From a virus: DNA of 64,000 nt. Where the stretch lies: IMG/VR virus record IMGVR_UViG_3300046096_000285, positions 1 through 64,000 of that record, one strand, 5' to 3'. This document shows, in pieces, positions 38,322 through 57,307 of the stretch (the first letter of the stretch is position 1; each line of letters begins with the position of its first letter). Below the pieces are notes generated by a model. It did not search any database, was not told the DNA's origin, and worked only from the letters and a program-made list of their open reading frames with translations. The position numbers were made by a program, and so were the translations under genes.

Positions 38322-38503
38322 CTAGTAGCTCAGCTCCTTCCCAACTTCCAACGAAGCCTGGGACCTGAATGCTGAATTTAGTCCCGTATTCATTTTTTCA
38401 ATACACGTATTCATTTTTTCACAAGAGCAAAACACCCGCTGCGTGATTTGACTCGCCGAACCTTTTCTGCTAAGTTTGACCTAAGCAATGAAAGGACGGA
38501 AAA

Positions 38504-39034
38504 ATGCACGTTGCGCACATACTGCTTGTTCAAGCAGACTCAGCAGAGGACGCCTTTGAGAGGGTCGAAAGCGAACTATCACCAACTGACTATGGAGTTC
38601 GACCAGAGTGGTCAGACTGGCACAATGCCAACAACTCAGCAGAGATGAACTTTGCTGGTCGTTGGACTGGTTCATTCTTCAAGAGCGATAAAGAGGACGA
38701 GCCAAACCCAAACCACCTTTGCTACGCAGATGACAAGGCGCTCGCAGAAAGTGTTATCTCTGACCAGTTAGCCATGCGTGACGCGGAGATTGCCAACATT
38801 AGAAAGAACATGGTTTCAGACCTTTCTACTGTCACAATCAACCACTACGCAGAAAAGTGGAACATGGATTACTGGTATACCCAGAAGTTCCTCAAGTTGG
38901 CAGATAACGAGTGGACTCCAGACTCATACATTTATGACCTAGAAACCAGCACAGCGTCACTTCACTGGTTCATGGAGCGTGTCATGCTCGTGCCAAAGAA
39001 GCAGTTTCTGGTTCCTGTGGACTTCCATTATTAG
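38504..39034 (+). CDS. cassette gene, hypothetical
   Basis: AAGGACGG RBS; WSDW...AGRW...FLVPVDFHY. Confidence 0.8.
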   Translation: MHVAHILLVQADSAEDAFERVESELSPTDYGVRPEWSDWHNANNSAEMNFAGRWTGSFFKSDKEDEPNPNHLCYADDKALAESVISDQLAMRDAEIANIRKNMVSDLSTVTINHYAEKWNMDYWYTQKFLKLADNEWTPDSYIYDLETSTASLHWFMERVMLVPKKQFLVPVDFHY

Positions 39035-39063
39035 AAGTGGAGAAGTGGTGATACACTTTTCTT

Positions 39064-39519
39064 ATGAAATCAATAGACAGATTTACAACTAAATACAAAA
39101 TCAATCTAGAAACAGGCTGCTGGGACTGGATAGCAGGGACATCGGCTGGGTATGGAGCGTTCGCGTACGAGCGCGGCAAAAAAGCCCATAGATTCTCGTA
39201 CGAATACCACAACAACACCATTCTCGGCGAACTGACTATCGACCACTTATGTAGGAATACACTGTGCGTAAATCCAGAACACTTAGAGGCAGTACCTAAG
39301 GGGGAGAACTCTAGGCGCAGAAATCTCAACCACACCTATAAGAAAAAAGAAGTCTGTAAGAATGGACACTTCATAGGAAAAAATGAATACGTCAGACCAG
39401 ATGGCTACTCTGAGTGCCTACTATGTAGGAGTGATAGAGGTAAGGCTTATAGGGAGAAGCATGGAGACGAGCATAGAGCCAAACTTCGTAAGTATTACCA
39501 CGACAAAAAAAATAAATAA
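39064..39519 (+). CDS. HNH homing endonuclease
   Basis: GCWDW...GYGAF...AHRFSY...DHLCRNTLCVNPEHL; leaderless; AT-rich. Confidence 0.92.
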   Translation: MKSIDRFTTKYKINLETGCWDWIAGTSAGYGAFAYERGKKAHRFSYEYHNNTILGELTIDHLCRNTLCVNPEHLEAVPKGENSRRRNLNHTYKKKEVCKNGHFIGKNEYVRPDGYSECLLCRSDRGKAYREKHGDEHRAKLRKYYHDKKNK

Positions 39520-39608
39520 AAAACTTTCAAAATAGACTTGACACTTCGAACGAATGGTGTAAAGTTATCAGTAGGTGGAAATCACCACCCAAAAAGTAAG
39601 GACGGAAA

Positions 39609-40079
39609 ATGACAACAATCGTTGAGCCAGTAGTCGAGACAGGTAAGCCAGCAATCGCTGGTGTTGGTATCTATCTCGAACTCGTGCCAAAGGGCGACAA
39701 CCCACACAACAAGACCACCCAGATTTTGTTTACCCCACAAGGTATGACAGAAAAGGGTCAGCCAGTAGGACTCGCCATGATTTCTCGTGAGGTCTCAACT
39801 TGGTCGCCACGCAAGCAATGGAGGCACAACTTCTCTCGCTTGACAGCAGAGCAAGAAGCACTCGCACCAGCAGACCAAGCACTCGCACTAATCGCTCGTT
39901 TCGAGACTTCTCTCAAGCGTGAGATTTACTATGGCTACGAACTACGCAACAAGCCAATCGTTTTCGAAGTTACCAACCTAGACCTCGCCGAGGTTCTGGA
40001 CTGGAAAGCACCTGCTTCGGCACTACGCCGAATCCAAAAGGCACGAGTATCTCTCGGCTTTCCAGAGAAGTTAGTTTAG
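39609..40079 (+). CDS. cassette gene, hypothetical
   Basis: AAGGACGG RBS, promoter at 39538. Confidence 0.75.
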   Translation: MTTIVEPVVETGKPAIAGVGIYLELVPKGDNPHNKTTQILFTPQGMTEKGQPVGLAMISREVSTWSPRKQWRHNFSRLTAEQEALAPADQALALIARFETSLKREIYYGYELRNKPIVFEVTNLDLAEVLDWKAPASALRRIQKARVSLGFPEKLV

Positions 40080-40102
40080 TCAAGGAATAGGACGGAAAAA
40101 TC

Positions 40103-41143
40103 ATGACTACAACCACAGCAACCCCAGCACCAGCAACACGCTCAATGGACACCATTGAGGTAGACGAACTGTTCGCCAATCTGACAGGTATGCTTTTCAG
40201 CGTGGCTGTTCAGGACAAGGACGCAAGTCTCAAGTCTCCAAATCTCGACTCCCTAATGCCACCTGCCGCTCGTGCTAATCTTAGAGCAAAGGCTGGCACA
40301 GGACAGGTAAAGGTAGCGAAGAAGTCAATGGTCAATGTTGAAGCACTAGAGGGTGTCGAGAAGTATCCTCGCCCAAATGGTCAGGATTACTACGCTCGCC
40401 CTTGGGGTGAACACACAGACATCGAGGTTCTCCGCAAGGCTCGAACTGCTGACCAGTTTGTTCTCCTCTATGGTGCGCCCGGAACTGGTAAGACTGCCGC
40501 TGTTGAAGCAGCGTTCCCAGACGAACTTTACACAGTCTTGGGTTCAGGCGACACCGAAGTTTCTGACCTCGTTGGAGGGTATGTTCAGACTCCAAGTGGC
40601 GGCTTCGAGTGGGTGGACGGTTCTCTCGTTCGCGCCGCCGAAGAGGGTAAGGTTCTTCTCATTGACGAGATTGGTCTCATTGACCCAAAGGTCTTGTCAA
40701 TCGTTTATGGTCTCATGGACGGACGCAGGGAATACACCGTCACAGCGAACCCAGAGCGCGGAACTGTCAAGGCGAAAGAGGGCTTCTATGTAATCGCCGC
40801 GACTAACCCAAATGCCCCAGGAGTTCGCCTATCAGAGGCGTTGCTATCTCGCTTCTCACTCCAAGTTGAAATGACAACTGACTGGGGTCTTGCCAAGAAG
40901 TTGGGCGTTCCAGTAATCGCTGTAACTGCCGCGCAGAACCTTGCGAAGAAGCAGAGCAATGGAGAAGTTTCTTGGTCTCCACAAATGCGTGAGTTGCTCA
41001 ACTTCAAGACAGTCTCGACCTTGTTTGGTTCGAAGTTCGCTGTCGAGAACCTCGCAGGTTCAGCACCAGAACTTGACCGTTCTGTTGTGGTAGATGTTCT
41101 GACCCGAGTGTTCGGCGAAGAAGTCAAGCCAGCCAAGATTTAG
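40103..41143 (+). CDS. MoxR/CbbQ-type AAA+ ATPase
   Basis: GAPGTGKT, DLVGGY, WVDGSL, LLIDE, AATNP, EALLSRF. Confidence 0.9.
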   Translation: MTTTTATPAPATRSMDTIEVDELFANLTGMLFSVAVQDKDASLKSPNLDSLMPPAARANLRAKAGTGQVKVAKKSMVNVEALEGVEKYPRPNGQDYYARPWGEHTDIEVLRKARTADQFVLLYGAPGTGKTAAVEAAFPDELYTVLGSGDTEVSDLVGGYVQTPSGGFEWVDGSLVRAAEEGKVLLIDEIGLIDPKVLSIVYGLMDGRREYTVTANPERGTVKAKEGFYVIAATNPNAPGVRLSEALLSRFSLQVEMTTDWGLAKKLGVPVIAVTAAQNLAKKQSNGEVSWSPQMRELLNFKTVSTLFGSKFAVENLAGSAPELDRSVVVDVLTRVFGEEVKPAKI

Positions 41144-41264
41144 CAACACCGTCCGTTGCTAATCGGGGAGTGTCAAAAAAGTTTTCGAATGGACTTGACA
41201 CTCCCCACCCACTTATGCTACTTTGTTGGTAGGACGAAACACCAACACGAATAAAGGACGAAAC

Positions 41265-43037
41265 ATGGCACACTTATCTAGACTCTCAACTCGCACGAGT
41301 TCAACTCCTGTCGAGTGGCTCAAGACCTGTTCACACATTGGCGAAGTTGCTAATGCTTGGGCTGGTCGTGGAGACCTTGCTGTCTACGCTGGCGAGGACG
41401 CTGGCATGGGCGAGGCACTTGCTTGCTTCATTATCGAGACAGCAGAAATCGAAATCAACCTACCAAAGGCTTTTGGCAAGGCGACCACTCCAGAAATGGT
41501 TGGCGACCTACGCTTGCGCGAAGTTCAGTATGACTGGGCAGAGCCAGTTGGCGTTATCTATCACGAGGCACTTCACGCTCGTTACACCACTTGGAACATG
41601 GAGGCACTCAAGGAGAGTCCAAAGGTCGAGATTGACGCTTTCATGTTGCTAGAGGAGTCACGCATTGAAGCACGAGGCGCACGACTAATCCCAAGTAACA
41701 AGTTGTTCTTGCGCTCGTCTGCCCTTGGTCTCTCGATTGGTGACATGGCAGAGGCTGTCAAGGACATGAGCGAGGTCTGGGCGACTGCCAACCTCGCAGG
41801 TCTGGCACTTGCTCGTGTAGACGCTGGCGTTCTCGAAGCGAGTGATGTCACGATTATCGAGGGCAAGGTTCTCGAGATTCTGGGCGAGGACTTGCTTGGC
41901 AAGTTGCGTTCAGTCTGGGTTCGCTTTCAGGCACTAGAGACTTCACAAATGGAACAGGGCAAGGCACTCGCTCAAGAGTGGGTCGAGTTGCTACGCGAGG
42001 CAGACCCAGAGGGCGAACCTCAAGAGGGTGGCGCAGGTGGCGCAATGTCACAGGCACTCCAAGACTTGATTGACGCGCTTGGCGAGGCTGCTGGCGATAC
42101 TGCTGTTCAGGTCTCGATTGACATGGGCGACCAGCAGGATTCAGAGGAACGCAAGGCAGAGGCAGAGGAACGCGCCAAGGAAAGCAAGCGACAGAACGAC
42201 AACAAGCAGGAGTCGCGCGAAGTGTTCACTCGCTCGAATGGCTCGACTGGTTCTGGGTCAGATTCACGACTCCAAGAACAGCGCAACCCAACTGGACACG
42301 AACGCGCCGCCGCTGTTCAGATTGCCAAGATGTTGGAAAAGGCAAAGTATCGTGAACGCTCGCTCACCGAAATCAAGAGCCACGCGCCACAGGGTCGCCT
42401 CAAGGCTCGCGTTGCTATTCAGAACGCCGCCGCGAAGTCGCGTGGAGTTCGTGAGACACAGCCAGCGTGGGTCGCCAAGAAGCGCAAGCACACAGACGAC
42501 CCGAACCTAAGCATTGGTGTCATGGTGGACATTAGCGGCTCAATGAGTTCGGCAATGGAGGCAATGGCAACTACGGCGTGGGTCATGGGAGAAGCAGGTC
42601 GCCGCGTTCAAGCCAAGACCGCAATGGTCTACTTCGGCTCGGGAGTGTTCTCGACTCTCAAGGTCGGTCAGAAGTTGGACAAGGTTTCGGTCTACTCCGC
42701 GCCAGACGGAACGGAGAAGTTTGACAAGGCGTTCAAGGCACTAGACGGCGAGTTGAACCTGACCTACGGCGAGGGTGTTCGTATGTTGGTCGTTGTATCA
42801 GACGGACAGTTCACCAGCGTAGAAATGGAAAAGGCTCAAGCCGCGGCTCGCCTTTGTGACCGCAACGGAGTCGCGCTTCTTTGGATTACGCCAGAGGCTT
42901 GCTGGAGTGGCAAGGGTCAAGCCTTGCTCAACGGCACGAGCGGCGTGGTTCTGGACAAGATGAAAACAGACGAGATTGCGCTCGCTATCGGTAAAGCCGC
43001 CGCCGAAGCACTCGGTAAGGTGGGTTCAAAGTTCTAG
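41265..43037 (+). CDS. VWA (CobT-like) partner protein with HExxH motif
   Basis: HEALH, LLEESRIE, DISGSM (MIDAS), VVSDG; start at ATG after AAGGACGAA. Confidence 0.85.
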   Translation: MAHLSRLSTRTSSTPVEWLKTCSHIGEVANAWAGRGDLAVYAGEDAGMGEALACFIIETAEIEINLPKAFGKATTPEMVGDLRLREVQYDWAEPVGVIYHEALHARYTTWNMEALKESPKVEIDAFMLLEESRIEARGARLIPSNKLFLRSSALGLSIGDMAEAVKDMSEVWATANLAGLALARVDAGVLEASDVTIIEGKVLEILGEDLLGKLRSVWVRFQALETSQMEQGKALAQEWVELLREADPEGEPQEGGAGGAMSQALQDLIDALGEAAGDTAVQVSIDMGDQQDSEERKAEAEERAKESKRQNDNKQESREVFTRSNGSTGSGSDSRLQEQRNPTGHERAAAVQIAKMLEKAKYRERSLTEIKSHAPQGRLKARVAIQNAAAKSRGVRETQPAWVAKKRKHTDDPNLSIGVMVDISGSMSSAMEAMATTAWVMGEAGRRVQAKTAMVYFGSGVFSTLKVGQKLDKVSVYSAPDGTEKFDKAFKALDGELNLTYGEGVRMLVVVSDGQFTSVEMEKAQAAARLCDRNGVALLWITPEACWSGKGQALLNGTSGVVLDKMKTDEIALAIGKAAAEALGKVGSKF

Positions 43038-43270
43038 GATTCCACTAGCGCAACGGTAGGCTTTCGGGTTCGTTCATGCCCGCCTCCTTTCCCTATCGGC
43101 TACTGGATAGAGACCCTCGACAGATTCGTCCCTGTCGGGGGTTTCGCACTTTCGGCGAGCGCAGGTCGTATTCATTTTTTCATTCTGTCTTTCGACTTCT
43201 GACGAAAGATGTTTGACACTCGTTTGAAGTATGCTAAGTTTGAACTATTCCTAGAAAGGGGAAAACAGAA

Positions 43271-44197
43271 ATGCCAAATCACGTTTGGAACAGCATTGGG
43301 GTTTCAGGGGCTATCGCTGACATTGAAGCGTTCGTTGCTAAGGCTGGCAAGCCACACATTACAGAGTTCAAGGGCAAGCGTTATCAGGACGAAACTGGCG
43401 CTTGGAAGTATGACCCAGAGATTATTGACACCCACGAGGACACAGACCCATTCTCATTCTGGAACTTCATAAAGCCAGACGACGAGATTCTTCCTGTCTA
43501 CTTTGGACACGAGAAGTCAGAGAAGCCAGAGGGCTACGAGGGCTGGGACTTCGCGGAGAAGATGGCGCACGACCTCAAGTTCACAGGCAACAACGCATAC
43601 GACTGGAACGTTCGCAACTGGGGAACCAAGTGGGACGCATACGACCAGACCTTCGACGGCGTGACAACTGACGAAGCGATTGGAAAGGCGAGTGCGACTT
43701 ACAGTTTCAATACGGCGTGGAGTATCCCAGTTCCAGTATTTGAAGCACTCTGCGAACAGCACCCAGAGTTGAGTTTCTCGTTTGAGTCGGAGGAGGAACA
43801 GGGCTGGGGCGCGACTTACGAGTCAAGCGCGGTAGACGACCCAGAGGACGGCGAGCCTACATCCGCACTACTTCTCATCAGCGAGTGGGACATCCCTGAG
43901 AGCCACGCAGAGTTGGTAGCCCGAGGGCGAGAATGCCACTGCGAGTATGACGACGACGAGGACTCGTGGTATGACGACTGCCCTCGTGAAGAACGAGTGT
44001 TCACCGTTGTCGTTGAGCAGACTTTCGTGGTCAAGGCGACGGACGCAGAGAAGGCTTGGGAACTTGCCGAGGAACACCTCAACAAGCCGATTGAGAACTT
44101 GCCAGAGGGAGTCGAGCAGTCGGATGAGTATTCGCTGTTCGTCAAGAACCCAGAGACTGGCGAGCGTTTGTATCCGACACTCGGAGGGGGTGAGTAG
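43271..44197 (+). CDS. DUF1281/YubB-like acidic protein
   Basis: MPNHVWN...YDWNVRNWGTKWD...FNTAWS.P. Confidence 0.75.
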   Translation: MPNHVWNSIGVSGAIADIEAFVAKAGKPHITEFKGKRYQDETGAWKYDPEIIDTHEDTDPFSFWNFIKPDDEILPVYFGHEKSEKPEGYEGWDFAEKMAHDLKFTGNNAYDWNVRNWGTKWDAYDQTFDGVTTDEAIGKASATYSFNTAWSIPVPVFEALCEQHPELSFSFESEEEQGWGATYESSAVDDPEDGEPTSALLLISEWDIPESHAELVARGRECHCEYDDDEDSWYDDCPREERVFTVVVEQTFVVKATDAEKAWELAEEHLNKPIENLPEGVEQSDEYSLFVKNPETGERLYPTLGGGE

Positions 44198-44443
44198 CGT
44201 GGCAACACCAAAGACACCGAAGCCGAAGATGGGCAACGGCGCAACGACTCGTCTGACAGACGGACGACGCAAGTAGCAGAGGGAGAGGGCGAAAGCCCTC
44301 TCTTTTCTTTTGCCCCTCGTATTCATTTTTTCGTCATTGCCACGCCGATACACGCCGCGATTTGACACGAGTTTGGAATAGGGTATAGACTACGAGAGTA
44401 GTCAACGAGGAAATGCCTCGACTACACAAAGGAGGGGATTGAA

Positions 44444-44836
44444 ATGGCAACTGCCGAACTTCAATCAGCACAGGTTGCTAAGGCGACCACCAGCATTACC
44501 AGCACCACAGAGGACAACCTAGTTGTTCTAACCCCTGCGATTCAGAAGCAGGTCAAGGCACTACGCGAGGCTCGCAATGTAGCGAAGCAGGCAAAGGCTC
44601 TAGGGGATACAGCACGAGACGTTATCTTGGAGTTCGTGGGGGAGACCACCACCAACCTCGTGGGCGTGGACGCAAAGGGCAAGCGTTTGATTAGCCTCAA
44701 GTTGATTCCAAGTTCAGAGAGTTTCGACTGGGCACGACTTCAACTTCAGCAGCCTGAGTTGTTCGAGATGCTCAAAAAGGAATACACCATTCCTCGTGGG
44801 GCAGGCGCACCAACTCCACGAGTGGACACGATTTAG
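44444..44836 (+). CDS. cassette gene, paralog of 48451-48777
   Basis: coiled coil then FDWARLQLQQPELFE. Confidence 0.75.
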   Translation: MATAELQSAQVAKATTSITSTTEDNLVVLTPAIQKQVKALREARNVAKQAKALGDTARDVILEFVGETTTNLVGVDAKGKRLISLKLIPSSESFDWARLQLQQPELFEMLKKEYTIPRGAGAPTPRVDTI

Positions 44837-44999
44837 TCCACTCACGAAAGTCGCTGGCGAGAGTTCCCCTCTCTCGCTGGCGATTTTTTGTATGGAGGCT
44901 GTATTCATTTTTTCATTAGATCCATAACTTCCAACGAATGGTTTGACTTGGAGATAACAAACTGGTAAAGTGGAAGTAACTCAACCAAAGGGGATTCAA

Positions 45000-45452
45000 A
45001 TGAGAACCAGAGAATACGACCTCAACGTTTACGTCACAGATGGCGTGGCACGTTTGTCAGCATACGAATACACATATAGCGACAGCGACGACCCTCAGCC
45101 AAATGGCACAGAGATGAGCAAGTTCGTCACGTTGGAAGTTCCAATGGACAAAGCACACCACGACGAAGTGGCGTTTCTACTGAGCGACGAGGACTGGCAA
45201 GACTCACCAGTGGCAGACTGGCAGGACTACGACAGCCCATGGGAAAACTTGGCGTGGCTAGAGACAGCACCGGCAAGCATAAGAGCGTGGGGAGACGCGC
45301 TCGCGGAATACGAGCCGACCACTCAACACGAGTGGGAACTCTACACAATGGACTTGAAATACGGCGAACGGCGAGACGTGAAGTGCCTCAACTGCGACGC
45401 GACATACCCTATCTACCGTTTGACATGGGAACAGATGACGGCTAAGGTGTAG
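45000..45452 (+). CDS. cassette gene, acidic hypothetical
   Basis: AAAGGGGATTCAA-ATG. Confidence 0.75.
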   Translation: MRTREYDLNVYVTDGVARLSAYEYTYSDSDDPQPNGTEMSKFVTLEVPMDKAHHDEVAFLLSDEDWQDSPVADWQDYDSPWENLAWLETAPASIRAWGDALAEYEPTTQHEWELYTMDLKYGERRDVKCLNCDATYPIYRLTWEQMTAKV

Positions 45453-45454
45453 GT

Positions 45455-45679
45455 ATGAGAAAAGACATCAAGCAACTACGGATACTCGCAGAGCAACAAG
45501 GCTGGAGAGTAGAGCGCACTAACGGCGACCACTTACGGTGGCTCGCGCCAGAGGGTGGCATGGCTATCTACTCGGCAAGCACACCGTCTAATGCTCGCGG
45601 AATACTCAACCTCAGAGCGCAACTGCGTAAAGCGGGTCTACATTTAGAGAAGCACGGCAAGCAAAAGGTGAACGCATGA
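45455..45679 (+). CDS. HicA-like small protein
   Basis: AEQQGWRVERT.GDHLRW...STPS...NLRAQLRKAG. Confidence 0.6.
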   Translation: MRKDIKQLRILAEQQGWRVERTNGDHLRWLAPEGGMAIYSASTPSNARGILNLRAQLRKAGLHLEKHGKQKVNA

Positions 45680-45972
45680 AACTGTATCGGCAAGCACTAG
45701 GCGAGGTTCTGCGCGAAGCAAGAACGGTGAGGGGTCAGACCCTGCGACAAGTCTCAACGGCTGCCTCGTGCGCCCTCGGATACCTGTCGGAGTTGGAGAA
45801 CGGACACAAGGAAGCGTCCTCGGAGATTTTGGAGGGGCTTGCCCGTGCGCTCAAGGTGACGGTGAGTGAACTCGCTATCCGTGCTGGCTTGCGTATAGCG
45901 GAGGAGAGTATCCCTGATACCCCTGCCGAACTCTACGAGGAAGCACCGGCCCTCATTCCTCACCGAGGATAG
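45676..45972 (+). CDS. XRE HTH regulator, ClgR-like
   Basis: LGEVLREAR..GQTLRQVS...LGYLSELENGHKEASSEIL. Confidence 0.8.
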   Translation: MKLYRQALGEVLREARTVRGQTLRQVSTAASCALGYLSELENGHKEASSEILEGLARALKVTVSELAIRAGLRIAEESIPDTPAELYEEAPALIPHRG

Positions 45973-46086
45973 CCTCGGGTGGTAACCCCGTATTCATTTT
46001 TTCAACAACCGACACGGCGAGCGCAATACTTGCTTGACGGCTTGCCGTAGGGTATAGTTGGACTATCCAATGAAAGGGGTTGCCAA

Positions 46087-46482
46087 ATGGCAGAGAACAT
46101 CACAACGGCGGGGCTAGTAGCCACCACACCAAGATACCTAGTCACGGCAGACGGCTTGCCGATTACTTCATTCCGGCTTGCCACAACTTCAAGAAAGTTT
46201 GACGCGCGAACTGGCGAGTGGGTTGACGGCGAGGCTAACTGGTATACCGTTACCGCCTTCCACGACTTGGCTATCAATGCGGCAAGCAGTATCGAGAAGG
46301 GTCACCGTATTGTCGTTCAAGGCGCGGTTAGAGTGCGCGACTGGGATAACGGCGAGCGAAGCGGAACATCCGTAGAGATTGAAGCCGAGGTCATAGGTCA
46401 CGACTTGAGTTGGGGAACCGCTGTGTTCACCCGAACCGTCTTGACTCGTAGGGTAGAGAAGCCAGAGACCGTGGGGGTATAG
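46087..46482 (+). CDS. ssb: single-stranded DNA-binding protein (no acidic tail)
   Basis: ITSFRLA...WVDGEANWYTV.AF..LA.N...KGHRIVVQG...IGHDL. Confidence 0.9.
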   Translation: MAENITTAGLVATTPRYLVTADGLPITSFRLATTSRKFDARTGEWVDGEANWYTVTAFHDLAINAASSIEKGHRIVVQGAVRVRDWDNGERSGTSVEIEAEVIGHDLSWGTAVFTRTVLTRRVEKPETVGV

Positions 46483-49484: not shown

Positions 49485-49841
49485 ATGACAAACTACAGCG
49501 ACGTGGAAGTTGCTCTTGAGAACGCTAAGGCGATTGCTTGGGACACCTGCCACAAGATTTACGTTCTAATGGATGACGAGCAAGTTGAGAAGATGCGCGA
49601 GTACGAGTACGACCCTCTAATCACGAGCGACGAGATGGACCCTAGCGAAATGCTGTCCACGATTCAAACTTGGTATGAGGACTCTTGCGGATTGCGTTTC
49701 GTAGAAAGCGTCACCACAAATCACGAAGACCCTAACCTTGGGTTTGAAAGTCTGATTCCACAGGGCGCGGATGACGAAGATGACGACACCGACGAATCTG
49801 AAGACGACTACTTCGATGACGAGGATGACGAAGATGAGTAA
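49485..49841 (+). CDS. cassette gene, very acidic protein
   Basis: AWDTCHKIY...SCGLRF; D/E tail. Confidence 0.8.
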   Translation: MTNYSDVEVALENAKAIAWDTCHKIYVLMDDEQVEKMREYEYDPLITSDEMDPSEMLSTIQTWYEDSCGLRFVESVTTNHEDPNLGFESLIPQGADDEDDDTDESEDDYFDDEDDEDE

Positions 49842-50034
49842 GTTCGCGTTCAACCTAGTTCTCAAGACTGATTACATCGAAGCAGAGAACATCGAAGAAG
49901 CAGAGAAGTTGCTGAACAAGTACATCGATGGGCTGGCTATGGTTGGTGAGCCTGAGATTACTTGGGACGAAGTTGACTGGCAGACCTTTGAAGGCGACCT
50001 AGTAATCAAAGACTTTAGTTCGCCCCTCAACTGA
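49834..50034 (+). CDS. cassette gene, small acidic protein
   Basis: overlapping start MSKFAF. Confidence 0.65.
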   Translation: MSKFAFNLVLKTDYIEAENIEEAEKLLNKYIDGLAMVGEPEITWDEVDWQTFEGDLVIKDFSSPLN

Positions 50035-50199
50035 GCACGAAGAAGAACGCTCTCGAAAGAGGGCGTTTTTTCTCAGGCCCGTTGTATTCATTTTTTCAAC
50101 TGGCGACACGGGGGGTTGGTCGAAAGTTGCGAAGGTTTGTCGAAAGTAGTAAAGTAGTTCTGTTGGCAAAAGCCAGCGTAAAGGGATAAGGGGTTTGAA

Positions 50200-50424
50200 A
50201 TGAAGTTTGTAGTTCGTAGAGCAGTCATTGGAGTTCTAGCAGTTCCAGCAGTAGCCGGTGCGTATGTGTTTGGGTATCTAGGTCTGTTGCTTCTAGGCGC
50301 GGAGGGTGCGCTCAAGATTGAAGAAATCTGGAACAATGGAATGTTGATTGGTGGCGTGTGTGCCGTAATGCTCGTGTTCGCGCCACAGGTAAACAAGTTC
50401 CTCGACAGGGTTACTGGAGAGTAA
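50200..50424 (+). CDS. cassette gene, two-TM membrane protein
   Basis: two hydrophobic helices; GATAAGGGG RBS. Confidence 0.75.
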   Translation: MKFVVRRAVIGVLAVPAVAGAYVFGYLGLLLLGAEGALKIEEIWNNGMLIGGVCAVMLVFAPQVNKFLDRVTGE

Positions 50425-50650
50425 AAGACTTGGCAGGGTTTATCCCCCTATCCCCTGCCCAAGAAAAGAGCGTGACCATTCCGCTCACGGCTAGGCACTT
50501 CCCCCAAGTGTCTAGCCTTTTTCTTTGCTCGGAAGTGTATTCATTTTTTCACCCTGCGACACGCGGATACAGATTGGATTTGCGCTCGCCGAGGATTTCC
50601 TGTAATGTAGTTCTTGTAGCCAGCAAGGGGTTGGCAGACAAGGGGTTCAA

Positions 50651-50808
50651 ATGCTAAAGACTTCAACAGCCGAGTGCGTAGATTGCGCGGTTGCTATCAC
50701 CAGCGACAACACGCAAGACGAGGGTGGAAAGTTTGCTTCACCACAGGGGGAATACGCTATCTGCGACAACTGCGCCAATGCTCGCATTGACGCTTACCTA
50801 GAGAACTA
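50651..50808 (+). CDS. cassette gene, small zinc finger
   Basis: CVDC...CDNC; AAGGGG RBS. Confidence 0.6.
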
Positions 50809-50821
50809 AGGGGCAGGGAAA

Positions 50822-51046
50822 ATGGCCGACTCAATGAAAGGTTCTGGGATTGACTCCGAGGACTACACCGCTTGGTTCTTTTGCTCACATTGTGACGAGG
50901 AACTGGAACTTGATGGAAAGTCAGACGACTATGGGATTATTGCGACAGCCGAGTGTCCTAAGTGCCGTTCAACCCTAGAGGTTGAAATGCCTAGCAAGGA
51001 ACAGTTGCGCGAGGACTACCTAGCCGACTACGACCCAAACAACTAA
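50822..51046 (+). CDS. cassette gene, acidic zinc ribbon
   Basis: CSHC...CPKC. Confidence 0.7.
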   Translation: MADSMKGSGIDSEDYTAWFFCSHCDEELELDGKSDDYGIIATAECPKCRSTLEVEMPSKEQLREDYLADYDPNN

Positions 51047-51291
51047 ATAGACTTACCTAGCGCGGGCAACTTCGCTAGGTGGGAGAGAACCGAGTAACCC
51101 CCTTGCTCGTGCGACTCCGAAAGAGCCAGACACTAATCCCCTTGTGTCTGGTTCTTTTGTTTCTACGGTGCTATTCATTTTTTCAGCAAGACTCCCCCGG
51201 GCGTGTCGATTTGCGCCACCCTGGTTGGGGTGCTACAGTTGATACTGTAGTCAGGAAGCAGATAGCGGAGGGCTACACGCAAGGGGAAGAA

Positions 51292-51627
51292 ATGTCTTCA
51301 ATCATTACTGTTCCAGTTCAGTTCCAGGCCGAGGACTTCTGGAGTGAAATCATGGGTTCAGCCTGGGAGACCTGGGACTGGTGGGTGACCCTGGACTACA
51401 GCCAGGGCGCGTCCTGGGACAAGGTTGGCGAAATCACCGTTACATCCTGGGACGGCGAGACCGAGGGCGAGACCCTAGTCACCAAGACCCTCACCATCCA
51501 GGACCTGGCTGAGTCTTACGGCAAGTGCCTGGCCGAAGGGTTCCGAATCAACATCCACGACCTGGACGCCGGCCAGGGCGACGTCATCCTTCAGATGGCA
51601 ATGTTCGGAGAAGTCGTCTACGGATAG
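51292..51627 (+). CDS. cassette gene, acidic hypothetical
   Basis: start MSSIIT after AAGGGG; DAGQGDVILQMAMFGEVVYG. Confidence 0.8.
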   Translation: MSSIITVPVQFQAEDFWSEIMGSAWETWDWWVTLDYSQGASWDKVGEITVTSWDGETEGETLVTKTLTIQDLAESYGKCLAEGFRINIHDLDAGQGDVILQMAMFGEVVYG

Positions 51628-51664
51628 TTTCACCAGGACGCCCCTCGGCAGAAATGCCGGGGGG

Positions 51665-51715
51665 TTTTCCACAGCCTGTGGAAAGTTATCCACAGACTTA
51701 TCCACATGTGGATAA
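51665..51715. promoter_or_regulatory. cluster of DnaA boxes
   Basis: TTATCCACA at 51686 and 51698, TGTGGATAA at 51707 (perfect); TTTTCCACA at 51665 and TGTGGAAAG at 51677 (near). Confidence 0.85.
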
Positions 51716-51860
51716 CTTTTTTTGGAGAGGTCTATTCATTTTTTCGTCAAACGACACGCACTTACGGAGACGATTTGACAGCTGCCAAAAACCCGAGTAG
51801 GCTTACTAATGTAATCAGGAAGCCAAGGGGGCGGAGGGTTACTGAAGGGGTGGGGTTCCA

Positions 51861-52199
51861 ATGGGACTTCTTATCAGCGTGTATCGGTCGGACTACGACA
51901 GCAAGGCAAATGTTTTCCACGGAAAGCGTCAGCTAGTTCTCGTGAATGTCGAAGGGCCATTCCAGCCATCAGACAACGCACCAGCTGCCAAGTTGGTTCA
52001 GGGTCACGGTAAGACCGCAATCATCGTGCCAGCGGACGAAGGCTTTGACGGCGTTCAGATGAACGGCGGAACTTACGGCTCAACCAGCGACAGTCGCTTT
52101 CAGCGAGCCGTAGAGGGACTAGTCGGAGTCTCACACTTTGCGGTGGCAATCCACGACCGTCGTGAGTCGTGGGCGGAATACGAGCAGTTCAGCCAGTAG
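51861..52199 (+). CDS. cassette gene, hypothetical
   Basis: MNGGTY.STSDSRF...VAIHDR. Confidence 0.8.
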   Translation: MGLLISVYRSDYDSKANVFHGKRQLVLVNVEGPFQPSDNAPAAKLVQGHGKTAIIVPADEGFDGVQMNGGTYGSTSDSRFQRAVEGLVGVSHFAVAIHDRRESWAEYEQFSQ

Positions 52200-52354
52200 G
52201 CAACCAAGCGAAAGGCTCACCCGAAGGGGTGGGCTTTTTTCTTGCTCGTTAGTCTATTCATTTTTTCATCCGGATGCGGGGAAGCTTGCGCGGTTCGTTG
52301 GAAGTTGGTAAAGTTGGAGTATCAACCAGATTGGTTGAAGATAAGGGGCTTCAA

Positions 52355-52702
52355 ATGGAAAAGATTGGTTTGGTAGTGGACTCGGAGTTCACCGCGTCTG
52401 TGACCAGGTTGTCACTCAAGGAACTACAAGCTGCGGTCGATGGTCTGATTCAGCCGATTGACATTCGCGAGGGCTTGACTATGTGGGTAAACGAGGAGTT
52501 CTTGTTTCGCTCAGAACCAGACGCAAACGTTTTGGCTAGTGCGTTCTTCGCTGAGGCTGGTGGAAAGTATGACATCCACGGAACTGTCGTCTTCACTGGT
52601 GGCACGGATGAGGATGGCAACACTCTCGGGCTGTCAGACGAGCACCGCGAGTTAGTGGAGTCGCTCTGTAAGTTCGGGATTGGCGTTCGCGAAATGGCTT
52701 AG
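52355..52702 (+). CDS. DUF3846-like protein
   Basis: LKELQAAVDGLIQ...MWVNEE...N.LAS...I.GTVVFTG..DEDG. Confidence 0.8.
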   Translation: MEKIGLVVDSEFTASVTRLSLKELQAAVDGLIQPIDIREGLTMWVNEEFLFRSEPDANVLASAFFAEAGGKYDIHGTVVFTGGTDEDGNTLGLSDEHRELVESLCKFGIGVREMA

Positions 52703-52874
52703 ATTTCAAAAAAGGAAAGTCCGGCTTCGGTCGGGCTTTTTCTTTTTCTCGGGGCTATTCATTTTTTCCTTCAGCTCGCAGACAACACACGGAAGTTCGT
52801 GGGAAGTTGCGTAGGCAGGGCGTTTCGATTAGGCTTAGGTCATAAGCCAAATGGTTTGGCGAAAGGGGATTCAA

Positions 52875-53108
52875 ATGGCAACCAAGAACGCGAACGCAGA
52901 TTTCGTTTTCGAACTCGTTATGAAGATGGCGGGCGGGGCGGACAAGTATTCAATCCACACTCAGGGCGCAATCTGGGCTGAGTGTCAGCGCAACTCATCA
53001 CTACAAACGCTAGCGGGAATGTATCTCGTTGGTTCATCAGCACGCGCAGAGAACAACCTAAAGAAGTTGCGCTCTGCCGTTTACTCAACATTCCTAGAGA
53101 GGAACTAA
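52875..53108 (+). CDS. cassette gene, hypothetical
   Basis: GAAAGGGGATTCAA-ATG. Confidence 0.7.
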   Translation: MATKNANADFVFELVMKMAGGADKYSIHTQGAIWAECQRNSSLQTLAGMYLVGSSARAENNLKKLRSAVYSTFLERN

Positions 53109-53110
53109 TA

Positions 53111-53338
53111 ATGGCAATGTCATACGGAGAGCGTAAAGCGCAAGCAATCGCTAGGCGTAATGCGGAACTACTCACGCGAGATTCTATGTTGGAGATTCGC
53201 AGTATTCTAAGTCCAATGCCCTACGCGCCTAAGTCGGTGCTAGAGGGCGTGCCGTTCGTAATAGAGAACTTGACCCCAATGGAATTAGATGTGGAGTTCG
53301 TGGGCGACACAATCACAATCAAAGAAGCGGTGCGCTAA
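53111..53338 (+). CDS. cassette gene, hypothetical
   Basis: GAGG RBS, MAMSYGE. Confidence 0.65.
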   Translation: MAMSYGERKAQAIARRNAELLTRDSMLEIRSILSPMPYAPKSVLEGVPFVIENLTPMELDVEFVGDTITIKEAVR

Positions 53339-53467
53339 TGCGGGCGTGGCACTTGCTCAAGTATCGAACTTGGCGCGTGGTCGGTTCGCTGGCGTTCGGT
53401 CTGTATCACCGCTCTGCTCAATGGTCTCACGAAGCGTTCGTGCGGGCTGGCAAGTCTGGTGCGGACA

Positions 53468-53635
53468 ATGACTAGGGGCGAGAGTCTGGCTGTTCTTTTA
53501 CGCTCGGTGGCTGGCGGTCTGGGATTTGTCTGGCTGTTTGGTTTTGCCGTTGGCTGGCAAGACCCTGTATCGCCGTTCGTTGTTTCCACACTTGCCGTTG
53601 GATTCTTGTGGGGTGCGTGGCGCGTGGGTCGTTAG
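53468..53635 (+). CDS. cassette gene, small two-TM protein
   Basis: MTRGESLAVLL...GFLWGAWRVGR; below track cut-off. Confidence 0.5.
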   Translation: MTRGESLAVLLRSVAGGLGFVWLFGFAVGWQDPVSPFVVSTLAVGFLWGAWRVGR

Positions 53636-53775
53636 TGACCCCGCGTTCGCGCTTGCGTGCGGACTATTCATTTTTTCCCTAATCCCCCTGCGGGCACACG
53701 GATGATTTGACTTTCATTTGCGGAGTAGGGTAGGCTAGTCGTAGACCAGCCAAGGGGGCTGGGGAGAGGGGCATC

Positions 53776-53925
53776 ATGATTCACATCTTCTGTGCGGACT
53801 GCGACGGCTGGGACTCGTTCCCATCTGGCGGGTCACACAACTGCGAGACCGTCGAGTTCGTTACCAACCCATCCGCTGGGTTCATCGGTGGCGACTGCTG
53901 GTTCGGGGACGACTCGGACTACTAG
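53776..53925 (+). CDS. cassette gene, small Cys/Asp protein
   Basis: GAGGGG RBS; CADC. Confidence 0.55.
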   Translation: MIHIFCADCDGWDSFPSGGSHNCETVEFVTNPSAGFIGGDCWFGDDSDY

Positions 53926-54119
53926 GCGAAAGCCTAGCCAACCCCTCACCTTCGGGTGGGGGGTTTCTTTCTGTTCGTGAGAAGTTGTCTGTGCGGGAGT
54001 GCTATTCATTTTTTCCCTAGGCGACACGCTTGCGGGGGGTATGATTTGACTTTGCCGGAGGATGTGTTAGGCTAGTCCTAGGACAAGCCAAAGGGGCTTG
54101 CCAGAAAAGGGGATTCAAA

Positions 54120-54290
54120 ATGTTCGGTCAGACTTTCTCAGGAATCGAAATCACTGTTCGCGAAGCAAACGGCTCAATCGTATGTGCGCCAACCTACGAA
54201 GCACACACCACGGCGAAGCAGTTGGAACTTATCAACGCAACCAAAGCAATGCTTACCGCTGGTCGCTCAATCACTTGGCGTTTGTTCTAA
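54120..54290 (+). CDS. cassette gene, small hypothetical
   Basis: AAAAGGGGATTCAAA-ATG. Confidence 0.6.
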   Translation: MFGQTFSGIEITVREANGSIVCAPTYEAHTTAKQLELINATKAMLTAGRSITWRLF

Positions 54291-54465
54291 GCCAACTTCC
54301 AACGAAGCCCGTCACCTCGGTGGCGGGTTTTGTTTTGCCCTGTGGGTCTATTCATTTTTTCGTCAAGTCGGGCATGCGGGTGACACGATTTGATTCGCGC
54401 ACCGTAAAGTGCTAAGCTCATGGGTAGAGCTTCAAAGGGGGGCTCAATAGTTCAAAGGGGTATTT

Positions 54466-54615
54466 ATGTTTGGGTTCAACGAGTGCGCACACTCTGAGTC
54501 GGAATCGTATGGCACTAGCCAGATTCATTGGGATGACCGCTCTGCGGGTATCGGCTGGGTTCAAGCTCCGTGCGCTGAGTGCGGGGAATCGCTAACATGG
54601 GTTATCAACGCATGA
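54466..54615 (+). CDS. cassette gene, small hypothetical
   Basis: AAAGGGG RBS; CAEC. Confidence 0.5.
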   Translation: MFGFNECAHSESESYGTSQIHWDDRSAGIGWVQAPCAECGESLTWVINA

Positions 54616-55358
54616 GCGCCCTGCTAGCAACCCGCGAGACTACTGCGGGCATTATCGCGGGGATGCTTACCGAAAACACTGGTCGGAGCTTCCTAGACTC
54701 TGGGGGTGAATCGGGACGTGCGTGGCAGAGAAACGCGGGCATGACCGTGGCAGACTTTGAAGCCCGCCCTGCGGGTACCTATGACGCTGAGTATGAGACG
54801 CTTACGGTAGACACATTCCATTACTTGAATGAGCTACTAACCTTTGACGCTGAGCGCACTGCGGAATGGGTGACCTTTGACGCTGAGCGGTCGCACCTAT
54901 CGTGGGGCGAAACTTTGGATGAATGGCTTGACACTCTAGGCGTCCCTGCCGAAGGGGGTGGGGATTTTTACTCTAACGCGCGATGGGGATTCAACAGCTA
55001 CAACTTTGATGGGTGTTTGCTGAGCTCCACGATTCAGGGCGTCAAGTTTGTCTCTGCGGGCACTGAGTACCTAGCCCTTCAGATTCATGGCGGGGCTGAC
55101 GTGCGGGGCGGTTACACGGCATTCAAGATTTTCACTGGAGACATTGAATCAGTGATTCTCGGGACTACTCGCGCAACCCTGCGATGCCCTGAGTGCGACT
55201 TTTATGCGGGCTACTCCGATGGCATGTTGGAAGATTACTACCTAGGTGACGCGCTAGCTGACCCGAACATGTTGATTGAGATGGATGTGCCTACGGAGCT
55301 CCCTGCGGGATGGGCAATCTCTGACGGTTGCCCTTTGCATAAGGTCGCTCTGGTTTAG
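54612..55358 (+). CDS. cassette gene, hypothetical
   Basis: MLTENTGRSFLDSGG...RAWQRN...LQIHGGADVRGGYT; ATGA coupling. Confidence 0.8.
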   Translation: MSALLATRETTAGIIAGMLTENTGRSFLDSGGESGRAWQRNAGMTVADFEARPAGTYDAEYETLTVDTFHYLNELLTFDAERTAEWVTFDAERSHLSWGETLDEWLDTLGVPAEGGGDFYSNARWGFNSYNFDGCLLSSTIQGVKFVSAGTEYLALQIHGGADVRGGYTAFKIFTGDIESVILGTTRATLRCPECDFYAGYSDGMLEDYYLGDALADPNMLIEMDVPTELPAGWAISDGCPLHKVALV

Positions 55359-55527
55359 CTCTACTCGGGAACCCCTGCTTCGGCGGGGGTTTTCGCATGT
55401 GCGGGGGAGCTATTCATTTTTTCCTGCTCTGCAACGAGTGCGGGCGTGATTTGACAAGTTTCGAATAGCTGATAGGATTTAGTCATAACTAAATAGCTCC
55501 AATTAACCGACAACCAAAGGGGACAAC

Positions 55528-55770
55528 ATGTCAACAGCAACAACTACCGCTAGCTTCTTCGTGCTAGCCGTCTCAACCAAGGGTGAGCTGCGCTTCACCC
55601 GTGGCAACAGCTTCGTTACTCGCGGTGCTGCAACCTTCGAAGCTTCTCAGAGCAACAAGCTCACTGAGCACCTTCGTGCTCAGGGATGGGACACTAGCTA
55701 CAAAGTGTTCTCTGCCGATGAGCTCAACGCCCTGGGTGCGCTAGGTATTCGCATCGGTGAAGCCTACTAG
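55528..55770 (+). CDS. cassette gene, hypothetical
   Basis: AAAGGGG RBS. Confidence 0.7.
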   Translation: MSTATTTASFFVLAVSTKGELRFTRGNSFVTRGAATFEASQSNKLTEHLRAQGWDTSYKVFSADELNALGALGIRIGEAY

Positions 55771-55896
55771 GCACACGCTCAAAGATGACCCCGCCATCGT
55801 GCGGGGTTTTCTTTTTGCTCAGGGGTTGCATTTATCTTGCGGGGCATGTATGATTGACTTATCAAGTCAAGGTGACTTGGAGATAAGGGGTTCAAA

Positions 55897-56109
55897 ATGA
55901 AAACACGTAACGCACGCGCATGGAGCGCAATCTTTATTCTTGGCATGGCAGTAGTCGGCGCGGTCGACTTGAACAACATCCAATCAGCTGACGATGCCAG
56001 TGAATTCTTTGGGTACGTTGTCGCTGTAGACGTGGCCATGTTTGCGGTAGGCCTAGCCCTGTTCGCCTACAACATCGCAACCTTCAAGCGTTCAAAGGTA
56101 GGTGCATAA
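55897..56109 (+). CDS. two-TM membrane protein
   Basis: GATAAGGGG RBS; two hydrophobic helices. Confidence 0.7.
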   Translation: MKTRNARAWSAIFILGMAVVGAVDLNNIQSADDASEFFGYVVAVDVAMFAVGLALFAYNIATFKRSKVGA

Positions 56110-56342
56110 TGACGCACGCGGTGTTGATTGAAGATGCACTTACGGGTGACCTTCTTGACCTTCGTTACTACTGCTCTGATTCATGCGCTCAGGATGACGT
56201 GGCCTACTCAGGATGGAATGGCTGCATTGAGCTCATGTTTGGGCAAGTGTGTGAGCGTGAAGGGTGTGAGAGCATCCTGCATGGCGTGAGCGAGTGTGTC
56301 TGCTCTGACGCTTCGTGTGTCGGGTCTCTGATAGACGTCTAG
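56109..56342 (+). CDS. Cys-rich small protein
   Basis: YYCSDSCA; TAATG coupling. Confidence 0.65.
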   Translation: MTHAVLIEDALTGDLLDLRYYCSDSCAQDDVAYSGWNGCIELMFGQVCEREGCESILHGVSECVCSDASCVGSLIDV

Positions 56343-57307
56343 CCCCTAAGCATCCACGTTAGCCCCTAGCTCAGTGCTAGGGGTTTTCGTATGTCTGCGG
56401 GCACCTTATCCCTGCGGTGACCTTATAGGGGCGTCTCAGGGCGTATAGCCCCCTGCGGTGACAACTATCCTGCGCTCAGGGTTGCACGCTCTGCCACGGG
56501 TCTCTCTAGCCACGTGTGCCCCTATGCACTAGCGGGCGGGGTGTAGCTAGCTCATGCTCATGAGTAGGTTGGTACCTAGGCATGGGCATGCTTATCACTG
56601 GAGATTCTGAGCATGACCTTTGTCTAGCCATGACCGGGCGCGTGAGCTATCGATTGATGAGAGCATGAACAACAAGCAACCCTTCATGGGTAGCCGCTAG
56701 CGAGACGGGCATTAGGCGTGTGCATGAACACCTAGGCATGATAGGCAGCCATAGAATCCATGAGCGTGCTCACCTTGTCGCTCACGTGGCTAGGGGTTGT
56801 TGGCGTAGGGTGTAGGATAGGCATGCTTCTCAAACGGGCATGTATCAATTTGGAAAACATGCTTGACTTTGGTCGCGGGTTATGGTAGACTACTCCATCT
56901 TTTGGCGTGACGGACGGTGCTCCACGGCCGATTCAGGAAACGTTTCGAGAGGGGTCGATTTATAGCTGCTGCCCTCTCGCACCCCAAAAGCATTTCAACG
57001 TCAACCTTACCCTAGTGCCGTCGGTTGTCAAATTCCTCCTTGAATTCTCCTACCTTAGACGCCCCTATTTCTAAAATCCCCCTCCACAAATTTTCAAAAA
57101 ATACGTCCCAAGTTGCATCACGACCAAAAATCCGACATAATAGACGCAGTTATTGTGCTACCATATTTAAACGGGAGCGCATTCAGCCACTAAAAGGTTG
57201 GATGTGCTTTTTTGCATCTCTGACAAGTACCACCCACAATTAAATAAGAAACACCAAGACAAGAAACAGCTGAGTACTAACTCTCACCAGGAAAGGTAGG
57301 CTGCCTA

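Follow-up and report, generated by a model that had tools for sequence, protein, structure and literature searches.

We analyzed a 64,000-nucleotide stretch of viral DNA (positions 1 to 64,000 of IMG/VR record IMGVR_UViG_3300046096_000285, hereafter the window), which carries a putative early array of about 22 transcription units at 38387–56390 on the + strand, each with 1–5 small genes. An exact copy of one 13-nucleotide box, TATTCATTTTTTC, opens 21 of these units. We propose that the box is a distal upstream site, dependent on the face of the helix, for a probably phage-encoded, co-evolving DNA-binding or DNA-bending factor that would co-regulate the early array, and we put the probability of this reading at roughly one half. 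A function at the level of initiation, through a sequence-specific reader, is suggested because the box is invariant over 13 nt, keeps to one helical face, varies privately and in concert between genomes, is dispensable in some relatives, and tolerates inversion.

By exact matching, the window contains 22 copies of TATTCATTTTTTC on the + strand and a single one on the − strand, 23 in all. The + copies start at 38387, 38408, 43169, 44320, 44902, 45991, 46551, 47007, 47590, 48332, 48875, 49384, 50085, 50538, 51172, 51733, 52255, 52756, 53665, 54003, 54349, and 55411. No further copies occur in the remainder of the 73,794-bp source contig, and 100 dinucleotide-preserving shuffles yielded none. 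A preliminary description of the window had reported 22 perfect forward copies of a non-palindromic 13-mer with no forward copy outside the array, and both statements were borne out, the second over the whole contig; the motif is confined to the array, with 22 copies on the + strand to one on the other. That description had also placed every copy on the + strand and between genes. This holds for the 22 forward copies, but it overlooked the exact reverse copy at 39377–39389 (−), which lies inside the HNH_3 endonuclease open reading frame (ORF; 39064–39519, +) and has no promoter at the phased distance.

The edges of the box are sharp. The information content is ~2 bits in each of the 13 columns and at most 1.06 bits in the flanks. 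There are no one-mismatch variants in the window, and a search with up to two mismatches adds two sites only, at 29363 (+) and 39506–39518 (−). Self-BLAST of the array shows most boxes as islands of identity amid unrelated sequence, with just three promoter pairs sharing weak similarity over 60–100 nt. The box was therefore ruled out as a remnant of duplication, as no extended paralogy surrounds most copies. The 14 + copies from 38387 to 50538 have G at position −1 and the 8 from 51172 to 55411 have C, which suggests two sub-arrays with separate histories.

The order of elements within a unit is as the preliminary description had given it: terminator hairpin, 13-mer, ACAC(G) box, SigA-type promoter, strong ribosome-binding site, and small genes. 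Strong hairpins with T-runs (ΔG −15 to −25 kcal/mol) end 12–24 nt upstream of 17 of the 22 boxes. A σA-type −35/−10 pair matching the consensus lies downstream in all 21 boxed units and in one further unit. The −35 is often GATTTGAC(A/T), and its consensus-type form in the unit layout reads (GAT)TTGACA; the spacer is 16–18 nt, and the −10 is TAnnnT, often TGn-extended. The ACAC(G) box stands between the 13-mer and the −35 in 17 of 22 cases, at +9 in six and at variable positions elsewhere. A 5′ stem-loop and then an AAGGGG-type ribosome-binding site precede the unit genes. Manual reading and an independent scorer agreed on the −10 positions, while a generic promoter and terminator scanner gave counts near shuffle expectation and was not informative.

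The gap from box end to −10 start is 49–53 nt in 17 cases. The other gaps are 41 nt (one case), 60, 61, and 64 nt (three cases), and 71 nt for the distal member of a tandem pair. These gaps step by about one helical turn, with a Rayleigh test at a period of 10–11 giving p ~2e-5 to 7e-5, a value dominated by the 49–53 nt cluster. Assuming a transcription start ~7 nt after the −10, as inferred from the consensus, the box would span about −76 to −64 (center ~−70), with minority classes near −60, −80, and −90. In a strain contig of the same phage, indels of net +11 nt and substitutions fall right after the box at 44320, while the box itself is intact.

We next turned to related genomes and retrieved 76 IMG/VR loci that encode the neighboring CobT-like protein and 80 metagenome loci that encode the first protein of the array. 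Sixteen related records share the grammar (terminator, T-rich box, often GACACG, σA promoter), and each has one dominant box. Twelve letters, TATTCATTTTTT, recur in L312 (four copies, with A rather than C as the 13th base), L318 (five), and G001/L242 (three). The other variants are TATTTATTTTTTC in L316 (17 copies), TATTCGTTTTTTC in L313 and L317 (15 and 14), TTTTCATTTTTTC in L314 (16), TATCCACTTTTTTAC in G002, G003, and L326 (15, 16, and 7), ACTGAAATTTTTTA in L278, L289, and L296, AACTGAACTTTTTTA in L288, and TGTAAATTTTTTAGG in L255. Their 5′ parts read TATTCAT, TATTTAT, TATTCGT, TTTTCAT, TATCCAC, CTGAAAT, CTGAAC, and TGTAAAT, with T5–6 after each. Genomes thus differ by 1–3 letters within the 6–7 nt that lie 5′ of a common T5–6 tract, and variants within a genome are nearly absent. 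We sorted the boxes into types A (with A′ and A″) to E. Spacing to the −10 is again clustered, at 50–55 and 70–72 nt for type B and at 46–52, 59–64, 70–73, 83–88, and 101 nt for type C.

Pairs of close relatives show how the box changes. L318 and L316 have a common cassette order and similar flanks, and each orthologous box differs by the same C/T. Between L242 and L241/L243, genes are 97–100% identical and the 200-nt windows with boxes are 81–87% identical; patches of 25–45 nt centered on the box have been replaced, type A versus type B. Strand bias ranges from 11:3 to 22:1 across genomes. In the relatives, most reverse copies lie between genes and take the canonical place, as in L313, where one precedes the −35 by 28 nt and the first cassette has a reversed tandem box pair. 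In G002 (129.6 kb, 75% complete), all 15 boxes lie inside one 17-kb stretch, in the early array only. The earlier proposal of one master site per co-regulated cassette gains from the phased spacing, the sharp island of identity, the homogeneous variant in each genome, and the patch replacement.

No T-rich box was found in L236 and L244, the two records nearest to this phage in their CobT-like protein (61%). Because both retain σA promoters and GACACG boxes, the box is an add-on and is dispensable in some relatives. In Actinomycetia phage DSL-LC01 (L127), the region 24796–43306 holds 17 + strand copies of (GA)TTCTAAAGATGTTATAAT(A)GAATC. Each is an extended −10 promoter between short inverted arms, and the ribosome-binding context ACGACGAAAGGACA comes after it. 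No comparable repeated box was found in the left arms of the cultured phages Pumpernickel and Cece, so neither would serve directly as a laboratory model. Exact scans of IMG/VR for a 14-mer and for the box plus ATTTG returned single chance matches only, and a scan for the strain-variant flank returned no match. A search of sequencing runs listed no RNA run that contains the phage. Two candidate identities of the box were also rejected. A DnaA-box reading would suit type B (TATCCAC) but fails for types A′, A″, and C, and a match to the IHF consensus was ruled out by inspection.

In the mechanism we propose, a sequence-specific DNA-binding or DNA-bending protein would occupy the box. The two-part build of the box suggests that the protein would recognize the variable 5′ half (TATTCA) from the major groove, and the constant T6 tract would serve for contact in the minor groove or for a bend. 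Upstream polymerase contacts, either class-I-like through the C-terminal domain of the α subunit (α-CTD) or by DNA wrapping, would then switch all ~22 early units together. The factor would most likely be phage-encoded, whether it arrives in the virion or is an early product, since each genome has its private box sequence and the boxes of close relatives change in concert. A phage-encoded reader is preferred over host polymerase alone because concerted private variation has precedents in stoperator–repressor pairs and in the T7 group. Protein binding, phage encoding, and polymerase contact are all inferred here from the arrangement of the sequence. Given that the core promoters come close to the consensus and persist in relatives without the box, a modulatory role, either a boost against competing host promoters or a synchronous, timed shut-off like that by phi29 p4 at A2c, is more likely than that of an obligatory activator. 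The sequence would fit either sign of regulation.

Several observations weigh against this proposal. No reader protein emerged among the candidates we checked by phyletic pattern or covariation. The tandem two-domain winged helix-turn-helix (wHTH) protein at 33798–34349 is present in box-less L236 and absent from box-bearing G001–G003, and the wHTH protein at 34315–34596 has nearly the same recognition helix in box-less L236. Neither the XRE HTH protein (45676–45972) nor the 48451 family covaries with box type, and there were no HU/IHF or Lsr2 homologs in four related records. G001 has three type-A boxes and one type-B box near the contig end, so that either both types are tolerated or the assembly is chimeric. 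No promoter separates a few boxes of types C, D, and E from the ribosome-binding site and start codon immediately after them, those of a TerS homolog (L255, L278, and L288), and these boxes may have a second role. The inverted copies suit bending better than direct contact, because orientation should matter to an asymmetric monomer in touch with polymerase. Furthermore, all contigs are incomplete (34–75%), which weakens the absence calls.

Other candidates can be described briefly. The acidic Zn-ribbon protein at 38016–38321, next to the first box, fails the phyletic check. The 48451 family is found in T-box lineages A, B, C, and D and is absent from box-less L236 and L244 in the loci examined. 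Both wHTH proteins are excisionase-type, and the predicted fold of 33798–34349 was unusable, with a predicted local distance difference test score (pLDDT) of 34. The WhiB gene (16316–16528) encodes a protein with a basic tail and no AT-hook, far from the array. None of the HTH candidates that the preliminary description had named as candidate binders of the 13-mer passed a phyletic or covariation check.

We weighed four other explanations. The box could be read by the host alone, as an UP-like or curved T-tract element that boosts promoters through α-CTD or wrapping, its variants being adaptations to different hosts; we consider this unlikely. The box is AT-rich, the T6 tract is constant across all variants, and ATTCATTTTTT resembles AWWWWWTTTTT, the distal UP subsite. 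Curvature or UP-type elements typically show helical phasing and tolerate inversion, and the lack of a phage reader among the candidates checked also fits. Promoter-early stem-loop (PeSL) promoters of T4-type phages have an AT-rich block upstream of the −35 as well (PMC2839356). However, UP and curvature elements are degenerate and A/T-rich, whereas here all 22 copies agree at every one of the 13 nt, non-T positions included, and the inferred position of about −64 to −76 falls outside the classical −40 to −60. Concerted changes of 1–3 letters in the 5′ half between near-identical relatives are hard to assign to a slow-evolving host polymerase, and close relatives manage without the box. It is highly improbable that the box is instead a promoter for a phage RNA polymerase or sigma factor, overlapping host-type early promoters. 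Concerted, genome-specific promoter variation is a hallmark of T7-group phages, and the few type C–E boxes that directly precede a ribosome-binding site and start codon would suit such a promoter. Against this, sigma70 region 2 (PF04542) had no match in the incomplete contigs G000–G003 while control genomes matched; a search for T7-type RNA polymerase (PF00940) had no match either, but the control genomes were also unmatched, so it is uninformative. The box is found in the early array alone and not before structural or replication genes, inverted copies occupy the same position, and phasing to a host-type −10 would be needless.

The other two explanations concern recombination and repression. 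The box could be a crossover point, or the target of a phage recombinase or HNH nickase that mobilizes, homogenizes, or shuffles cassettes as integrons or PeSLs do, with promoter proximity secondary; we regard this as rather improbable. Cassettes do move: SSB, the HicA-like ORF, and the 48451 homolog are displaced relative to L316, L241 and L243 differ by cassette insertions and replacements, and a strain contig joins 51848 to 54134 and shows other rearrangements; cassette deletions are seen in strain contigs. Short box-centered patches are replaced between near-identical genomes, and the mobile HNH gene contains the exact reverse copy. Of 34 homology breakpoints, however, no more than 3 come within 8 nt of a box, with 0.87 expected (all informative pairs; Poisson p ~0.06). 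All three are between L243 and L241, within 6 nt of the box edge, and the L278/L296 pair has 0 of 22. Joints in strain contigs fall in the 5′ untranslated region or ribosome-binding site, as for PeSLs (PMC2839356). This explanation also leaves the helical-turn stepping to the −10 unexplained, no integrase adjoins the array, 13 bp is short for homologous exchange, and no HNH homolog was found in related loci. Cassette shuffling is thus real and PeSL-like, with the 13-mer at most a minor crossover point. The preliminary description had suggested that identical junctions let cassettes be gained, lost, or shuffled; differences in order and content between relatives and strains agree with the exchange, but with few breakpoints at the box and joints elsewhere, a role of the junctions is weakly supported. 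A stoperator-type site, at which an immunity or shut-off repressor blocks read-through and silences the array in a lysogen or late in infection, is quite improbable. The asymmetric 13-mer with more than 20 mostly co-oriented copies and genome-specific variants is as in Cluster A phages (PMC9283540, PMC6550527), and DSL-LC01 was called lysogenic by its authors (PMC10611076). Yet every box follows a strong terminator and precedes its own promoter, where a block to elongation would silence nothing. Inverted copies stand at canonical places, whereas stoperators lose function when inverted, and the sites lie in one 18-kb array, not genome-wide. No two-domain repressor covaries with the box, and no integrase was seen in the contig.

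The HNH_3 gene (39064–39519, +) encodes a free-standing homing endonuclease in the first operon. Judging from the contigs, it is a mobile insertion, because a contig from another lake sample skips 39007–39507 and has 26 other letters there.

The source contig (IMG/VR, 73,794 bp) has a CheckV completeness of 44%. The virus is an uncultured freshwater phage with an uncultured host. It belongs with the large actinobacteriophage myoviruses by its terminase (with an intein), portal, class Ib ribonucleotide reductase, WhiB, and Gly-rich tail proteins. Among named phages it is nearest to DSL-LC01 (portal identity 72%) and to the ~190-kb Microbacterium and Arthrobacter phages, with the portal and terminase closest to Microbacterium/Arthrobacter phage homologs. 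Megablast with the array as query found no match among GenBank phages, and an Rfam scan of 33–60 kb found no family. The TerS homolog at 34836–35720 (294 aa, acidic/Zn-binding) corresponds to gene 1, annotated as the small terminase subunit in Cece. Because homologs of gene 1 stand at the physical left end of the Microbacterium phages Cece and Pumpernickel, a genome end probably lies near 34.7 kb, and the array would start ~3.5 kb from it.

The array genes are short and mostly ORFans. Those assigned to families are SSB, an XRE HTH gene, DUF3846, weak Zn-ribbon-like ORFs, and a DUF1281_C-like protein; the HicA-like ORF adjoining the XRE HTH gene has a weak match, below the cut-off. Several four-base palindromes are almost completely avoided in the array: GATC occurs once against 70 expected, GTAC 10 times against 70, GGCC 13 against 81, and CCGG 16 against 81, while AGCT and ACGT reach about half the expected count. 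This avoidance is extreme in the array only, and the remaining contig is mildly depleted. The pattern is consistent with DNA that has to evade restriction, being exposed ahead of the anti-restriction functions. Together with the ~3.5 kb distance from the TerS gene, it would support the array as an early, first-exposed region. The earlier idea of a host-takeover module stays tentative, as most of the genes are ORFans.

The units are as follows, with hexamers and boxes on the + strand, single positions as starts, and gaps counted from box end to −10. The first unit opens with a tandem pair, whose distal box (38387–38399) has a 21-bp spacing to the next and lies 71 nt from the −10. The proximal box (38408–38420) precedes TTGACT (38448–53) and TAAGTT (38471–76) at a gap of 50 and would drive 38504–39034 and downstream genes. 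The 22nd promoter (+; TTGACA at 39538–43 and TAAAGT at 39560–65) lies 41 nt from a degenerate inverted box, TATTTATTTTTTT, at 39506–39518 (−, two mismatches). Its genes at 39609–43037 encode a 156-aa ORF, an AAA_5 ATPase, and the CobT-like protein. Box 43169 is followed by TTGACA at 43213, TAAGTT at 43235 (gap 53), and a gene at 43271–44197, and box 44320 by TTGACA at 44362, a −10 at 44384–44391 (gap 51–53), and a gene at 44444–44836. Box 44902 (TTGACT 44943, TAAAGT 44966, gap 51) heads the ORFan, HicA-like, and XRE HTH genes at ~45000–45972, box 45991 (TTGCTT 46030, TATAGT 46053, gap 49) the SSB gene at 46087–46482, and box 46551 (TTGGAA 46591, TAAGGT 46614, gap 50) a gene at 46659–46832 for a possible Zn ribbon, with Pfam matches below the cut-off.

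Gaps of 64 and 60 nt separate box 47007 from TAAGTT at 47084 (−35 TTGATT 47061; gene 47134–47463) and box 47590 from TACTTT at 47663 (−35 TTGACT 47640; genes 47707–48271). Box 48332 precedes TTGGTG (48374), TATCAT (48397; gap 52), and the gene 48451–48777, and box 48875 precedes TTGACA (48916), TAAGAT (48939; gap 51), and the gene 49002–49331. The unit of box 49384 has a weak −35 and an extended −10, TGaTAAAAT, at 49450 (gap 53), with genes at 49485–50034. A gap of 52 recurs at box 50085 (TTGCGA 50127, TAAAGT 50150; gene 50200–50424) and box 50538 (TTGCGC 50580, TAATGT 50603; genes 50651–51046). Box 51172, the first with C at −1, has TTGCGC at 51211, TACAGT at 51234 (gap 49), and a gene at 51292–51627; box 51733 has a DnaA-box cluster upstream (51665–51715), then TTGACA at 51775, TAGGCT at 51798 (gap 52), and a gene at 51861–52199. 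The gap of box 52255 is 41 nt (TTGCGC 52286, TAAAGT 52309), ahead of the DUF3846 gene at ~52355–52702, and the gap of box 52756 is 61 nt (TTGCGT 52807, TAGGCT 52830; genes 52875–53338). The last four boxes are 53665 (TTGACT 53707, TAGGCT 53731, gap 53; gene 53776–53925), 54003 (TTGACT 54046, TAGGCT 54068, gap 52; gene 54120–54290), 54349 (TTGATT 54390, TAAGCT 54413, gap 51; genes 54466–55358), and 55411 (TTGACA 55451, TAGGAT 55473, gap 49; genes 55528–56342).

Several further features of the window and its relatives were noted. The DnaA-box cluster at 51665–51715 has three perfect copies of TTATCCACA (two +, one −) and one 1-mismatch copy within 51 bp, and it stands between the terminator and box 51733. 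Clusters of TTATCCACA also precede a box in L243 (~18750–18800) and L255 (~13790–13830). The cluster may be a phage origin or a DnaA sink, and the G-to-C switch at position −1 falls near it. In L236, repeats of CCGGATCTAGCC and TTCGTTAGAAGT are densely packed at the array end (20800–21450), much like iterons. A second repeated word, AACTTC(C/T)AACGAA, occurs at 38340, 34810, 44925, and 54290 in the window and also in L236 and L312. It lies at gene ends, before −35 boxes, or fused to a Shine-Dalgarno sequence (CAACGAAAGGGG), and it is common to relatives that lack the T-rich box. The terminator loops at ~44860, 47555, 50500, and 51140 read (A/T)TCCCC(T) or CCCCC, which makes them complementary to AAGGGG(AT), the ribosome-binding site in the cassettes. 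The genes 44444–44836 and 48451–48777 look distantly paralogous, with an S/T-rich N-terminus, a long helix, and a beta-rich C-terminus ending in FPE.YE; a Mu Gam-like function for these proteins is a guess only. Elsewhere in the window are three Gly_rich_2 tail-fiber-like paralogs at 710–5230 (−), a cluster of four tRNA genes (Asn, Gly, Thr, Trp) at 17706–18329, and the large terminase subunit at 59516–61957, split by an intein-like LAGLIDADG/Hom_end homing-endonuclease domain at residues ~274–346.

A broader form of our proposal, which we put forward tentatively, is that the box is a private and rapidly diversifying "address code" of a clade of uncultured freshwater actinophages. The code would consist of a 6–7 nt specificity half plus T6, placed one to several helical turns upstream of each early promoter, and its reader would be a cognate phage factor from a family not yet described, which may arrive in the virion. 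If so, early expression would be licensed or shut off solely by a phage's own factor, and co-infecting relatives would be transcriptionally insulated or mutually excluded. The code would be an early-promoter counterpart of T7/T3 polymerase–promoter specificity and of Cluster A heteroimmunity, and it would evolve by patchwise replacement of all ~20 sites. A phage-encoded reader would be a master switch of the early program, a possible basis for exclusion between related lake phages, and half of a compact orthogonal promoter–regulator pair for Actinobacteria. The composite promoter is naturally replicated ~22 times in one genome, and natural specificity swaps are on offer in at least 16 relatives, where concerted single-letter changes at orthologous sites make a ready mutational series for a new DNA-binding specificity. 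To our knowledge, early promoters of large actinobacteriophages are essentially uncharacterized, and we found no description of such a box in the literature mentioning DSL-LC01 or Pumpernickel.

The array and its box can be compared with several known systems. Class I CAP sites lie at −61.5, −71.5, −82.5, and −92.5, on one helix face in steps of ~10–11 bp, and phi29 p4 near −71 represses a strong promoter (A2c) or activates a weak one. The inferred box centers of about −60, −70, −80, and −90 would match the class I positions, if transcription starts 7 nt after the −10. However, CAP and p4 sites are dyad-symmetric or inverted repeats, whereas the box is asymmetric and invariant. The host-takeover module of SPO1 and the early promoters of T5 and T4 provide another parallel, with many short early operons near a genome end under strong host-type promoters and terminators. 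These early promoters have conserved AT-rich upstream blocks, and the DNA-bending protein TF1 of SPO1 prefers early-promoter sites. We know of no exactly repeated distal element of this kind reported in SPO1, T5, or T4, and no HU/IHF-type gene was found here. The array also differs from integron cassettes, which have imperfect inverted-repeat attC sites beside a tyrosine-recombinase integrase, as the box is no inverted repeat and there was no integrase among the ORFs scanned around the array.

The closest parallels are the PeSL cassettes of T4-type phages (Arbiol 2010, PMC2839356; Comeau 2014, PMC4122927) and the Cluster A stoperators. PeSL cassettes share with our array the dense runs of ORFans in a plastic early region, the stem-loop terminator, AT-rich block, and strong host-type promoter, and a content and order that vary between relatives. 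PeSL crossovers map between the −10/Shine-Dalgarno sequence and the ATG, in the loop, or beside the AT-rich block (PMC2839356), and the first of these locations is shared. However, PeSLs belong to a T4-like lineage, while this actinophage is related to Microbacterium/Arthrobacter myoviruses. PeSLs are degenerate and similar over ~50 bp or more, whereas here the spacers are unrelated and an invariant, genome-specific 13-mer stands phased ~70 bp upstream as a weak breakpoint hotspot. Cluster A stoperators are asymmetric 13-bp sites, more than 20 per genome, with a genome-specific motif that tracks the specificity of the phage's monomeric repressor (PMC9283540, PMC6550527). Length, asymmetry, copy number, orientation bias, private variants, and the actinobacteriophage setting are all shared. 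In contrast, stoperators are spread genome-wide inside transcription units, block elongation, and fail when inverted, whereas the box is limited to the early array, sits between terminator and promoter in helical phase, and tolerates inversion, with no cognate repressor found in the incomplete contigs. The preliminary statement that the layout matches neither stoperators nor known cassettes was therefore too strong, as the layout is PeSL-like and the genome-specific asymmetric 13-mer is stoperator-like. By analogy, the array is an actinophage counterpart of the T4-type PeSL and ORFan cassettes and of the SPO1 module, a member of none of them, and with it the "mobile regulatory cassette" architecture known in T4-type phages reaches an unrelated lineage and host phylum. 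The logic of the box, in turn, resembles a stoperator-like private code placed at class-I-like positions.

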